Source: an uncultured Anaerolineae bacterium
GTDB taxonomy: Bacteria > Chloroflexota > Anaerolineae > DAOTYC01
Length of the DNA: 33,205 nt
Direction: 5' to 3'
Assembly: GCA_964589015.1 (NCBI GenBank)
Contig: CAZPTF010000005.1
Coordinates: 1-33,205 of the forward strand
Shown here piece by piece: positions 889 to 4,343 of the stretch. A program made the translations under genes and the position numbers. The notes beneath the pieces were generated by a model. It ran no database searches. It was not told the DNA's origin and was given only the letters and a program-made list of their open reading frames with translations. How positions within the stretch are numbered: the first letter of the stretch is position 1; each line of letters begins with the position of its first letter.

Positions 889-944
889 TTCTAACATAAT
901 CCTAATATTCATCTAACGTTATTCTAACAAGCCTTTGTTATGAT
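889..944 (+). promoter_or_regulatory. hsp20 promoter: four CTAA(C/T) direct repeats at 11-bp period plus extended -10 TGtTATGAT
   Basis: CTAAC 891, CTAAT 902, CTAAC 913, CTAAC 924; TATGAT at 939-944 preceded by TG at 936-937. The same layout occurs upstream of lon. Confidence 0.8.
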
Positions 945-1005
945 GTAATCAAGGATTGCGGAAATGTGTAGACCACTTCTTGATGAATCATAGCGAGGTG
1001 AGGAA

Positions 1006-1440
1006 ATGAGTAGTGTATGGCAACCAGTCAGTCTGAGAGATGCAATGAATCGGTTGATGGAGGAGAGTTTCGTAAGGCCGCGATACGGCAGAGGTGTGCA
1101 AGCAGAATCCGACGTTCCGGATCTTCCACTCGACGTTTTATCCACTGAGGAGGCGCTCGTGATCGTGGCCAACGTCCCGGGACTGAACGTCGACGAAGTG
1201 GACATCAGTATCGAGGGGGACATTCTGACCATTCGCGGCGAGTTGAAACAGACGGAATCTGAAAATGGCAGTTGGGTCATGCAAGAACGCTACCATGGTC
1301 CTTTTCGCCGCGTGCTGACGCTCAACGTACCGATTCAAGCGGACAAAGCTGAAGCCCGCTTCAAGGACGGTGTCTTGACTCTGACGCTGCCCAAGGCTGA
1401 GAAAGTGCGTCCGAAAGTGATTAAAGTCAAGAGCGAGTAA
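1006..1440 (+). CDS. Hsp20/alpha-crystallin small heat-shock protein
   Basis: 144 aa; SLRDAMNRL N-terminus, ERYHGPFRRVLTL, ARFKDGVLTLTLPK, C-terminal IKV motif; RBS GAGGTGA upstream. Confidence 0.95.
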   Translation: MSSVWQPVSLRDAMNRLMEESFVRPRYGRGVQAESDVPDLPLDVLSTEEALVIVANVPGLNVDEVDISIEGDILTIRGELKQTESENGSWVMQERYHGPFRRVLTLNVPIQADKAEARFKDGVLTLTLPKAEKVRPKVIKVKSE

Positions 1441-1452
1441 CGACACCAAGAC

Positions 1453-1486
1453 TTTGGGGAGAAGCGGTTATCGTCTTCTCCCCAAA
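1453..1486 (+). terminator. Stem-loop downstream of hsp20 (terminator-like, no U tract)
   Basis: Perfect 12-bp inverted repeat TTTGGGGAGAAG (1453-1464) / CTTCTCCCCAAA (1475-1486) just after the stop codon. Confidence 0.65.
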
Positions 1487-1642
1487 ATCCGGCTTACAGG
1501 AACCCGCGCGAGGATTGCACGCTTAGAGCGAACGCTCCGACTTACCTCCGGAAAACAGCCATTTCGACGCAATCTCACCGAATCCCCCCTTTACCCACCC
1601 CGATAACAGACCGTGTAATCGATCGGCCCATCTCTTGGGCAT

Positions 1643-1698
1643 TTCTAACAAAAGTCTTATACTACTCTAACGTTACTCTAATGCAGAGCCGTTATGAT
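1643..1698 (+). promoter_or_regulatory. lon promoter: four CT(A/T)A(C/T) direct repeats at 11-bp period plus -10 TATGAT
   Basis: CTAAC 1645, CTTAT 1656, CTAAC 1667, CTAAT 1678; TATGAT at 1693-1698. Aligns without gaps to the hsp20 promoter (offset 754). Confidence 0.8.
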
Positions 1699-1844: not shown

Positions 1845-4343
1845 ATGTTACCATGGCTGAATCTACTGGGTGCAGCCCATGAGATTGACATCGCCAACAT
1901 TCCAGACGAACTGCCGATACTGCCACTGAGAAACATCGTCGCTTTCCCATTCATCGTTGTTCCTCTAGCGGTAGGCATTCCTCGTTCTGTTAAGCTCATT
2001 GAAGAGGCAGCAGAGGGAAACCGTCTTATCGGTATGGTTGCTATGACCGACCCCTCCGTGGAAGAGCCGGGAATCGGACAAACCTATGGAGTCGGCACCG
2101 TGGGCATCATCCACAAAGTGGTCAGTACGGACGACGGGTCGTTGCAGGTCATCGTACAGGGTCTTGAGCGATTTCGGATCAAGGAATGGATCACCGAGCA
2201 ACCCTATCTCAAGGCGAAAATCGAGTTGATCCCGGATATCATTCCTCAACCGATTGACGGTGAAAAGGACAATGACTCAGGCCGGTTGCTCGAAATGGAA
2301 GCGCTCAAACGCAATTTGCTGGACTCTTTGCGCCGTCTGGTGTCTCTGACACCGCAGCTTCCGGAACAGATTGTGGATTTCATCAATAAGCTGGATGACC
2401 CACGGTACATGGTCTATCTCACGGCAGCGAACATCCGGATGACAATGGAGCAGGCACAGGAGATTCTCGGTCAGGATGATTTCGTCGAAAAGATGCGCAG
2501 TCTGATCACGATCTTGACCAAGGAACTGGAGATTCTCGAACTGGGACAGAAGATCAGGACGGAAGCGCAGTCGGAGATGGAAAAAGCGCAGCGCGAGTAC
2601 TTCCTGCGAGAACAGCTCAAGGCCATCAAGAAAGAGCTGGGGGAAGGCGACGAAGAGCAGGTCGAAGTAGAAGAATACCGCGAGAAGATCCTGAAGGCCG
2701 GCATGCACAAAGAGGCCGAGAAGGAAGCCCTGCACGAGCTCGCGCGTATGGAGAAGATGCCACCACATGCCGCCGAGTATGGCGTGATCAAGACATATCT
2801 GGACTGGCTCGCGGAGCTTCCGTGGCAGACGCGCAGCGAAGACAACCTGGACATCGGGCATGCGCGTACCGTGCTCGACGAAGATCACTACGACCTTACG
2901 GAGATCAAAGACCGGCTGTTGGAGTATCTGGCCGTGCGCAAACTCCGTCAGGAACGTAGCGAAAATGGGGAGGACCAGGAGACAGGCGATCGCAGCTTCG
3001 AGCCGGCGGTCGAAGGCCAGGGCACGATCCTGTGCTTCGTCGGACCACCGGGAACGGGCAAGACGTCGCTTGGCCGGTCTATCGCGCGAGCGCTGGGTCG
3101 TGAATTCACCCGCATGTCGCTGGGGGGAGTGCGCGATGAAGCCGAGATTCGCGGGCACCGGCGGACCTACATCGGAGCGATGCCCGGGCGCATCATCCAG
3201 GCGATCAAACGTGTCGGGACGATGAACCCGGTGTTCATGCTGGATGAGGTCGATAAACTGGGCGCAGACTGGCGTGGCGATCCATCTTCCGCGCTGCTGG
3301 AAGTGCTGGATCCTCAACAGAACCACGCGTTCAGGGATCACTACCTGGACGTCGATTTCGATCTGTCGGAGGTGATTTTCATTGGGACCGCCAACCTGCT
3401 GGATCCGATCCCTGCGCCACTGCGCGACCGGATGGAGATCCTGACGCTGGATGGATACACCGAATACGAGAAGGTTCGGATCGCTCAGGATTACCTGCTG
3501 CCCCGGCAGCTCAGAGTGAACGGGCTGCGACCGGGCGAGGTGGAGATCGACGAGGAAGGACTCAGAACGATCATCAGAGACTACACCCGTGAGTCCGGTG
3601 TTCGTAACCTAGAGCGAGAGATCGGGCGCGTGTGCCGCAAGGTCGTGACCCAGATCGCCGCGAACCAACCACCGGCATCACCGCTGGTCACAGCGGACCA
3701 GATCCGTGAGTATCTGGGCAAGCCGCGTTTCTTCTTTGAAGCGGCGTTGCGCACGGAGAAACCGGGCGTGGCTACCGGCCTGGCGGTGACCGCTGCGGGC
3801 GGCGAGGTCCTCTTCGTCGAGTCCGCGATCATGCCGGGCAAGGAGAGCCTCACATTGACCGGACAACTGGGCGACGTCATGAAGGAGTCGGCCCAGATCG
3901 CGCTGAGCTACGTGCGCGCTACGGCAGAGCAGTTGGATATCGAACAAAAGTCCCTCAATGGGAAAGACATCCATCTGCACGTACCCGCAGGCGCAACGCC
4001 GAAAGACGGGCCGTCAGCGGGGGTCACGATGGTAACATCGCTCGTGTCACTGCTGACCAACACACCCGTCCGCTCCGAAGTGGGCATGACCGGTGAGATC
4101 ACCCTGCAAGGCCAGGTGCTTCCGATTGGGGGCGTGAAACAGAAAGTGCTCGCCGCGCATCGGGCAGGGTTGAAGACCGTCGTTGTCCCGAAGCGAAATG
4201 AAGTCGATCTGAAAGATGTCCCCGACGACATCCGCGAGTCGATGTCCTTCGTCCTGGCGGAAACCATTGACGATGTGCTGGAAGCAGCGCTCCTGCCGAA
4301 TGCCGTAGCTGAGTCGGTGGAAGCCGCTGCCGAAGCTGCCTGA
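1845..4343 (+). CDS. lon: ATP-dependent Lon protease (endopeptidase La)
   Basis: LPILPLRN N-domain, Walker A GPPGTGKT, Walker B FMLDEVDK, catalytic PKDGPSAG and IGGVKQK. Start placed at ATG 1845 after the strong RBS GAGGAGG (1831-1837), not at the ORF-track GTG 1701. Confidence 0.97.
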   Translation: MLPWLNLLGAAHEIDIANIPDELPILPLRNIVAFPFIVVPLAVGIPRSVKLIEEAAEGNRLIGMVAMTDPSVEEPGIGQTYGVGTVGIIHKVVSTDDGSLQVIVQGLERFRIKEWITEQPYLKAKIELIPDIIPQPIDGEKDNDSGRLLEMEALKRNLLDSLRRLVSLTPQLPEQIVDFINKLDDPRYMVYLTAANIRMTMEQAQEILGQDDFVEKMRSLITILTKELEILELGQKIRTEAQSEMEKAQREYFLREQLKAIKKELGEGDEEQVEVEEYREKILKAGMHKEAEKEALHELARMEKMPPHAAEYGVIKTYLDWLAELPWQTRSEDNLDIGHARTVLDEDHYDLTEIKDRLLEYLAVRKLRQERSENGEDQETGDRSFEPAVEGQGTILCFVGPPGTGKTSLGRSIARALGREFTRMSLGGVRDEAEIRGHRRTYIGAMPGRIIQAIKRVGTMNPVFMLDEVDKLGADWRGDPSSALLEVLDPQQNHAFRDHYLDVDFDLSEVIFIGTANLLDPIPAPLRDRMEILTLDGYTEYEKVRIAQDYLLPRQLRVNGLRPGEVEIDEEGLRTIIRDYTRESGVRNLEREIGRVCRKVVTQIAANQPPASPLVTADQIREYLGKPRFFFEAALRTEKPGVATGLAVTAAGGEVLFVESAIMPGKESLTLTGQLGDVMKESAQIALSYVRATAEQLDIEQKSLNGKDIHLHVPAGATPKDGPSAGVTMVTSLVSLLTNTPVRSEVGMTGEITLQGQVLPIGGVKQKVLAAHRAGLKTVVVPKRNEVDLKDVPDDIRESMSFVLAETIDDVLEAALLPNAVAESVEAAAEAA

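Follow-up and report, generated by a model that had tools for sequence, protein, structure and literature searches.

How does an uncultured bacterium of the class Anaerolineae (phylum Chloroflexota) control the genes that deal with damaged proteins? The question is raised by the left end of a 33,205-nucleotide stretch of its DNA (the window, bases 1 to 33,205 of contig C5; the genome containing it, G000, is a 4.68-Mb assembly of 672 contigs that is 91% complete), where the gene for a small heat-shock protein, hsp20, and the gene for the ATP-dependent protease La, lon, are each preceded by four short, evenly spaced direct repeats and a −10 hexamer. We are confident that this element, referred to here as the box, is real and beyond chance and that it marks a conserved heat-shock regulon. 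The best overall explanation, which we consider probable, is that boxes are heat-shock operator sites read by a phosphorylated activator of the OmpR/PhoB family, and that these sites are conserved across the Anaerolineae, with looser versions in other Chloroflexota.

Two matching promoters at hsp20 and lon

Both boxes lie on the forward strand and have an 11-bp period. The hsp20 box (890 to 928) is composed of TCTAAC (890 to 895), CCTAAT (901 to 906), TCTAAC (912 to 917), and TCTAAC (923 to 928), and the lon box (1644 to 1682) of TCTAAC (1644 to 1649), TCTTAT (1655 to 1660), TCTAAC (1666 to 1671), and TCTAAT (1677 to 1682). Read directly from the sequence, they score 59.1 and 56.1 bits, respectively, with a matrix derived from other genomes. 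The same −10 hexamer, TATGAT, follows 10 bp after the last repeat in each case (939 to 944 and 1693 to 1698, forward strand), and the ten bases in between are unconserved in both promoters. Ungapped alignment of positions 889 to 944 with 1643 to 1698 gave 39/56 identities, and a degenerate pattern describing the shared box matched the window exactly twice, with 0.00 matches expected from 100 shuffles. When the consensus −35 element was sought at a spacing of 16 to 18 bp, the best match was 2/6 at both promoters, and a generic sigma-70 scan run in addition called no promoter at either TATGAT. The initial annotation, which had described four 11-bp-phased repeats, the last one 10 bp before an identical TATGAT, and no −35 element, therefore withstood both re-reading and the −35 check. 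The lon gene of a relative (G001) is preceded by the same box, including the same TCTTAT second repeat. The generic scan also returned a TGGGCA-16-TATACT match inside the lon box (1636 to 1663), which we rejected as being at chance level (0.8 expected), and an Rfam search over 850 to 1900 produced one sub-threshold chance match only.

From the position of the −10 hexamers, transcription is predicted to start near 951 for hsp20 and near 1705 for lon, the latter giving a leader of about 140 nucleotides before the lon ATG at 1845, which is preceded by a GAGGAGG ribosome site. Six RNA runs contain part of the stretch, and the four that we examined all consist of assembled metatranscriptome contigs, which provide at most a weak hint because assembled contigs cannot define starts. 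In one run, a contig spanning 965 to 4363 (hsp20 to the end of lon) had a depth of 21, compared with 3.5 to 4.8 for the htrA contigs (about 4- to 6-fold); the letters at its 965 end are presumably sequencing adapter. That end weakly hints at an hsp20 start near 951, and it offers nothing for lon. The other three runs contained short, low-depth pieces.

The box marks a regulon in this genome

A matrix trained on 47 sites, all from genomes other than G000, was run over G000 and over its reversed sequence. It returned 11 sites of at least 14 bits in the 4.68 Mb (five at 56 to 60 bits, four at 22 to 39 bits, and two weak ones) and no window of at least 14 bits in the reversed genome. The five strongest precede dnaK (C7), clpB (C31), hsp20, lon, and a 74-amino-acid cysteine-rich open reading frame (ORF; C46), and the four intermediate ones precede a MoxR-type ATPase operon (C133), two ABC-2 transporter operons (C77 and C4), and a family-5 solute-binding (peptide-binding) protein (C378). 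A further site, on C101, is truncated by a contig end. A CRP-family gene on C2 with two repeats fell below the matrix threshold and was treated as a chance occurrence. The proteostasis regulon that had been proposed from hsp20 and lon alone thus gained support from the genome-wide scan, with both founding members retained; its proposed extent proved too narrow, as it also takes in dnaK, clpB, and, in the relatives considered below, grpE, dnaJ, and groES. As a side observation, the weaker boxes before the MoxR-DUF58-VWA-like operon (C133:1233-7230) and the two ABC-2 operons (C77:4361-8414 and C4:91-3401) have YTTAAK as the proximal repeat, and an ABC ATPase behind a box recurs in G012 and G020.

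Conservation in Anaerolineae and beyond

Conservation was assessed in a class sample of 21 Anaerolineae genomes (20 relatives plus G000) with a strict 55-base pattern allowing at most 3 mismatches. It occurred in 16 of the 21 genomes, at 77 places, while the reversed pattern had no match in the same 21 genomes. For the sites in relatives, each place was fetched, the first long downstream ORF was called, and Pfam was run, yielding 74 distinct sites that we sorted, partly by eye, into a heat-shock type (54/74) and the sister type described below. Chaperone or protease genes lie behind 42 of the 54 heat-shock-type sites: hsp20 (15), dnaK (11, of which 5 are reached through a small cysteine-rich ORF), clpB (6, one a fragment), lon (3), grpE (2), dnaJ (2), htrA (2), and groES (1). 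Two more sites precede a stand-alone cysteine-rich ORF, and the remaining 10 precede ABC ATPases (2), an M50-CBS peptidase, a MoxR protein, a solute-binding protein, a sigma-70-family gene, an NPCBM/CARDB protein, two unknown ORFs, and a contig end.

The sigma-70-family gene, which belongs to G012 (L040:1187-2278; 363 amino acids, with regions 1.2, 2, 3, and 4), lies behind a perfect box and just upstream of a box-driven grpE. We considered it as a dedicated heat-shock sigma factor and rejected it, as its G000 orthologue (C326, 59% identity) lacks a box and is preceded by promoter-like sequences of the ordinary kind; it is more likely a housekeeping-type sigma factor with a heat-shock promoter.

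Outside the closest relatives the box becomes looser. In a phylum sample of 121 Chloroflexota genomes (including G000), the strict pattern matched only 9. Inspection of genomes missed by the pattern revealed degenerate hsp20 boxes in G015, G005, G014, G017, G105, G026, G063, and G114 in which a proximal TCTAAC and a −10 element, still 10 bp apart, are preserved; a variant hexamer type, TCCAAC/GCTTAY, was seen in G114. In other classes of Chloroflexota, a box precedes groES in G131, G047, G059, and G071. G008 has neither a box nor an orthologue of the candidate regulator introduced below, and a MerR/HspR-like gene precedes its hsp20. Because boxes are degenerate outside the closest relatives, co-occurrence of strict box and regulator over the 121 genomes was uninformative and was set aside. 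A separate sample of 65 loci, fetched through the gene for the cysteine-rich protein, covers Anaerolineae, Chloroflexota, Thermogemmatispora, Thermoflexus, Ktedonobacter, and one metagenome-assembled genome (MAG) of Dehalococcoidia. By score, 39 of these 65 loci have a box, mostly 50 to 100 bases before the gene; three Thermogemmatispora records have six phased repeats there, and Thermoflexus records have two strong and two weak ones.

A probable activator site in place of a −35 element

The consensus reads TCTAAC followed by an A-rich spacer, TCTAAC-AYTCC, TCTAAYG..., TCTAAY, ten information-free bases, and TAnAAT. Each hexamer position carries 1.5 to 2 bits, each position of the 10-bp spacer 0.0 to 0.2 bits, and the A-rich inter-repeat spacers little. 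The 11-bp period is exact in both window promoters and in the 74 sites from relatives, and at none of the 74 sites does a −35 match exceed 4/6.

An 11-bp phasing near the helical repeat, together with inter-repeat spacers that are often A-rich, could also mean that the repeats act mainly through DNA shape (intrinsic curvature or an UP-element-like contact, melting or straightening as the temperature shifts), with no dedicated sequence-specific regulator. We regard this as very improbable, as it is the hexamers that keep their 1.5 to 2 bits across distant genomes and not the A-rich spacers, and the sister box, which differs mainly in the base after the hexamer, accompanies a different set of genes. 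In addition, gene-specific variant repeats are kept across genomes (at clpB the third repeat is TCAAAT, and the box of the cysteine-rich gene contains TCTAGC or TCTATC), which argues for selection on individual sites.

It is likely, instead, that the box is an activator site replacing the −35 element. The pho boxes of Escherichia coli PhoB and Bacillus subtilis PhoP, the latter with core sites of four phased hexamers, are direct repeats at 10 to 11 bp whose proximal copy lies about 10 bp from the −10 element with no −35, and four repeats occupied by two dimers represent the class II activation geometry of OmpR/PhoB-family regulators. The earlier assignment of the box to this geometry holds, with direct repeats at 11 bp, the proximal one 10 bp from the −10 element, and no −35. 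Phased repeats, four of them as would suit two dimers, the missing −35, and a candidate regulator of the OmpR/PhoB family are all shared with PhoB and PhoP. The differences are that the hexamer has another sequence, that the candidate kinase is a soluble GAF-PAS protein and not of the membrane PhoR type, and that the regulon comprises core cytoplasmic chaperones and proteases, with no pst or pho gene among the G000 matches.

An operator upstream of the −10 element could, alternatively, bind a repressor that is inactivated by heat, following a logic like that of CtsR. The operators of CtsR are tandem direct repeats, many phyla control heat shock mainly through repressors, and OmpR-family proteins can repress. 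Yet promoters without a −35 element should be weak when unoccupied, the fixed 10 bp to the −10 element and the information-free spacer fit recruitment rather than occlusion, and no CtsR gene (PF05848) was matched in the 91%-complete G000, so that we consider a repressor quite unlikely. The TCTAAY hexamer is also unlike the CtsR heptad.

Among established heat-shock systems, G000 has a canonical hrcA-grpE-dnaK-dnaJ operon (C40:12900-19048) with a second dnaK beside the box-driven one, and the box regulon therefore coexists with an HrcA operon, the CIRCE of which is not visible because hrcA is cut by a contig end. A genome scan for CIRCE-like sites, allowing at most 4 mismatches to the consensus, found three poor matches in G000 and none on contig C5, in agreement with the initial reading that the hsp20 and lon promoters lack CIRCE. 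Nothing in G000 exceeded the TIGR02392 cut-off for sigma-32, the matches being two sigma-70-like genes, and no Cpn10 gene was found in this 91%-complete assembly.

A candidate regulator of the OmpR family

The initial annotation had proposed an OmpR-family response regulator and a histidine kinase as the type of binder, and the best candidate that we found, judged from its sequence and genomic context, belongs to that family. It is a 238-amino-acid response regulator (C11:5907-6620) encoded behind a GAF-PAS histidine kinase (C11:4253-5830), one of 18 matches to the OmpR-type DNA-binding domain in G000. We hypothesize that this protein binds the box, which is our best single hypothesis and one that we lean toward accepting. 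In 16 of the 20 relatives it has one clear orthologue per genome at 63 to 86% identity, with paralogues at about 50%, and in 47 of the 121 Chloroflexota genomes (46 of 120 without G000) there is one match per genome at an E value of 1e-75 or better; across relatives and phylum sample together, orthologue identity spans 56 to 86%. The phospho-acceptor Asp and the signature residues of receiver domains are retained, with no variation in the acidic pocket or at Asp58, Thr85, and Lys107 among the protein and its orthologues; the DNA-binding domain is very conserved, and the nearest solved relatives are MtrA, PhoP, KdpE, and RegX3.

Two lines of evidence point to this regulator, the first of which is family resemblance. 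A regulator gene with its own family's box directly upstream is the usual signature of two-component autoregulation, and in three genomes (G019, G010, and, from the phylum sample, G097) the sister box directly precedes OmpR-family regulator genes. Among the G000 paralogues, the C11 regulator is the closest to these proteins (48% identity), and their identities to it range from 43 to 50%; since these paralogues carry the sister box before their own genes, the C11 subfamily appears to use this box architecture.

The second line is gene neighborhood, which was annotated in 39 genomes (in 7 of them the ORF picker missed the regulator itself, and the neighbors there are less certain). A heat-shock gene lies directly downstream of the orthologue on the same strand in 7 of the 39: dnaK in G011 and G051, hsp20 in G026, G063, G039, and G075, and groES-groEL in G071, a member of another class. 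Between the two genes there is a box in G011 and G071 and a proximal hexamer plus −10 element in the four hsp20 cases. At 2 of the 65 cysteine-rich loci, an orthologue (72% and 62% identity) is directly upstream of the box and the cysteine-rich gene; the order in the Dehalococcoidia MAG (L167) is GAF-PAS kinase, regulator, box, cysteine-rich gene, BON protein, hsp20. Separately, in family f20 (L222, L223, L234, and L238) the regulator gene ends in a stem-loop whose arms vary between genomes yet stay complementary, followed by a T run, and this stem-loop shares bases with the proximal hexamer of the hsp20 promoter that comes next.

Several observations weigh against the activator and its proposed regulator. 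Autoregulation of the kinase-regulator pair, which the initial annotation had expected, did not materialize: the box is absent from that operon in G000, even at a relaxed score, and no heat-shock gene is linked to the regulator in G000. Of the seven adjacency cases, four (the hsp20 cases G026, G063, G039, and G075) come from f20 and, being in one family, are not independent and count as one event. Eleven other genomes of the same class in the phylum sample have the regulator and no strict-pattern match, and the five of these that were inspected by eye have degenerate boxes only. One low-depth RNA piece has its left end at 1672, ahead of the start predicted for lon, and most known heat-shock regulons outside Proteobacteria are under repressors. 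The link between regulator and box is drawn from gene neighborhood and family resemblance. Finally, G017 (100% complete) has hsp20 boxes and no orthologue (best match, 47% identity), and G035 has a perfect box and a best regulator match of 44%.

Boxes in these last two genomes without a clear orthologue would be expected if the activator site were bound by some other factor, either another of the 17 to 18 OmpR-family regulators of G000 or an unrelated DNA-binding protein, with the neighborhood of the C11 orthologues reflecting co-regulation. The 18 OmpR-type domain matches in G000 offer other possible binders, and a NarL-type regulator is found in the same cluster in G026, G075, and G096. We nevertheless consider another binder unlikely, given that no other regulator gene was seen adjoining box genes in several lineages and that, among the G000 paralogues, none is nearer to the autoregulated sister-box regulators than the C11 protein. 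The cysteine-rich protein, the only other recurrent unknown, is present in just 9 of the 21 class genomes, compared with boxes in 16; we rejected it as the binder and kept it as a regulon member.

If the C11 regulator is the binder, activation may proceed as follows. Four (elsewhere up to six) TCTAAY-like hexamers lie on one face of the helix, the proximal one 10 bp before TAnnnT, and two dimers of the phosphorylated regulator (in G000, the product of C11:5907-6620) would bind them head-to-tail. The protomer on the proximal repeat would then substitute for the −35 contact and recruit RNA polymerase in the manner of PhoB at pho boxes. Regulator activity would rise under proteotoxic stress, in the G000 lineage via the GAF-PAS kinase, and the system would operate beside HrcA, which would keep the second dnaK operon.

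Possible inputs to the regulator

The regulator gene occurs in two recurrent contexts. In G000, G001, G002, G003, G009, G012, G016, G019, and several genomes of other classes, it follows a GAF-PAS-HisKA-HATPase kinase, which in G000 has no membrane segment. In G004, G010, G011, G014, G015, G026, G039, G051, G075, G096, G105, and G132, it follows part or all of a row encoding a Ser/Thr kinase with a beta-propeller, a PP2C phosphatase, a J-domain-VWA protein, and an FHA protein; G000 carries the same row on C141 (L262:3-3514) without the regulator. This row is conserved across Anaerolineae (loci L219, L234, L235, L237, and L238), and its beta-propeller is PQQ-like. In many lineages other than that of G000, the Ser/Thr-kinase, PP2C, FHA, and J-domain-VWA module may couple the regulator to DnaK availability, with the J-domain protein as the putative tie between regulator and DnaK. 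That the module feeds chaperone status into the regulator is a speculative idea that we think doubtful at present.

A sister box and a cysteine-rich mini-protein

The sister box is represented by 19 of the 74 sites, which lie before genes of a different nature. Behind them are glycosyltransferases, sugar transferases, FG-GAP and TSP3 proteins, a P-type ATPase, a nonribosomal peptide synthetase, a UbiD-family decarboxylase, and a membrane histidine kinase (HisKA_7TM); the rest are ORFs without a Pfam match, one site at a contig end, and the OmpR-family regulator genes mentioned above (L054, L064, and L258, the G097 site from the phylum sample being counted in addition; other sister sites include L055, L062, L063, L068, and L073). 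A hybrid kinase gene with a sister box, in G004, immediately follows a fourth gene for a paralogous regulator. Sister repeats have a pyrimidine next to the hexamer in 60/76 cases and heat-shock repeats have a purine in 204/216, counts that are descriptive only and partly circular because the two groups were sorted partly by eye. The third repeat of the sister box is often TCTTAC. No sister-box site was seen in G000. The gene content suggests a second regulon, concerned with the cell envelope or exopolysaccharide.

The cysteine-rich protein is 66 to 87 amino acids long with an invariant core, CxxC ... YCCxGC..GGPCxC, and its gene is either the first in a box-driven dnaK operon or preceded by a separate box. 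In G000 it lies on the reverse strand (C46:15730-15954, equal to L002:6731-6955; relatives at L034, L042, L046, L052, L059, and L077), about 625 nucleotides upstream of dnaA on the same strand. The protein matches no Pfam family, and the ESM atlas returned Chloroflexota hypothetical clusters only; the nearest named cluster there, prokaryotic metallothionein (0.87), is a lead only.

The locus and its gene order

All genes of the locus are on the forward strand. The window opens with the 3′ part of htrA (1 to 882; trypsin-like protease plus PDZ domain, Pfam Trypsin_2 and PDZ_2), followed by hsp20 (1006 to 1440; 144 amino acids, Pfam HSP20, E value 3.9e-19) and lon (1845 to 4343; 832 amino acids, Pfam LON_substr_bdg, AAA, Lon_lid, and Lon_C). 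A G+C-rich hairpin after hsp20 (1456 to 1483, no strand assigned), read from the sequence and not called by a simple terminator scan, is a possible terminator between hsp20 and the lon promoter.

Contig C7, when reversed, runs into htrA and stops after 144 N-terminal residues of the protein; the final ones among these are the residues that open the window. Because C7 (G000:C7:1-2651, reverse; L001) overlaps the window start (1 to 60) inside htrA, dnaK-htrA-hsp20-lon is one locus split by the assembly. The same order is present in G001, where the HtrA following dnaK is 66% identical to that of the window. A two-component system had been suspected upstream of htrA; the genes left of the window are instead the box-driven dnaK. 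The gap between dnaK and htrA contains a G+C-rich hairpin, and no box was seen there in G000, which means that htrA, listed in the initial annotation as a co-activated gene, lacks its own box in this genome; in two relatives it does have one.

Relation to known heat-shock control

A search of open-access papers and preprints found no description of this box or of heat-shock control in Anaerolineae or Chloroflexi. HrcA-CIRCE, CtsR, HspR-HAIR, and sigma-32 share the targets of the box (dnaK, groESL, clpB, hsp20, and lon); as a group they work through inverted repeats or a dedicated sigma factor, and all but sigma-32 repress. CpxAR, CssRS, and MprAB are OmpR-family systems with tandem repeats that control an HtrA-type protease and, in the case of MprA, also an Hsp20. 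They sense envelope stress via membrane kinases and do not drive dnaK, clpB, grpE, groES, or lon, whereas the candidate kinase here has no membrane segment and htrA is a peripheral member of the regulon.

A parallel in logic is cyanobacterial. Kobayashi et al. reportedly described in 2017 the activation of chaperone genes by Hik34-Rre1, and we know of no 4 × 11-bp box for that system. Hik34-Rre1 (and Hik2-Rre1) directly activates heat-inducible chaperone genes beside HrcA (PMC9321951). Two-component activation of chaperone genes beside HrcA is thus shared with our proposal and the phylum differs. In Myxococcus, the gene for the orphan response regulator MXAN_4468 lies directly upstream of groEL2, which it controls; it is a negative regulator acting with HrcA that binds inside its own gene, with no phased box reported, an architecture unlike the one here (PMC9040617).

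Biological significance

Textbook heat-shock control is diverse (sigma-32, HrcA, HspR, and CtsR), and that of the Chloroflexota, a large phylum whose members abound in sludge, in sediments, and in hot springs, has so far been undescribed. Tandem-repeat activation of the OmpR type is already known, and what is likely new here is its application to the core heat shock of a whole phylum. The analysis aligns more than 50 examples of a cis-element, defines its regulon, and names one candidate regulator with two alternative inputs. The question of how protein damage is sensed thereby becomes testable with one protein and a few oligonucleotides, and in cultured relatives as well, as the box is present in Thermogemmatispora records. 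For annotation, it also offers a practical way to flag stress genes in the many genomes of uncultured Anaerolineae.

In its fullest form, which we offer tentatively as a possibility, the core heat shock of Chloroflexota would be governed by a previously undescribed activator circuit in which a single-copy OmpR-family regulator acts on four to six phased TCTAAY hexamers that stand in for a −35 element before dnaK, clpB, groESL, lon, hsp20, grpE, and dnaJ, with input from a GAF-PAS kinase or a J-domain-VWA module and with a cysteine-rich component. If true, it would be one of the rare instances in which cytoplasmic chaperones are governed by an activator of the OmpR type. A J-domain module tying the regulator to free DnaK would amount to chaperone-titration feedback on a two-component regulator, and the Chloroflexota-only cysteine-rich mini-protein encoded at the head of the dnaK operon would add one more component to the response.

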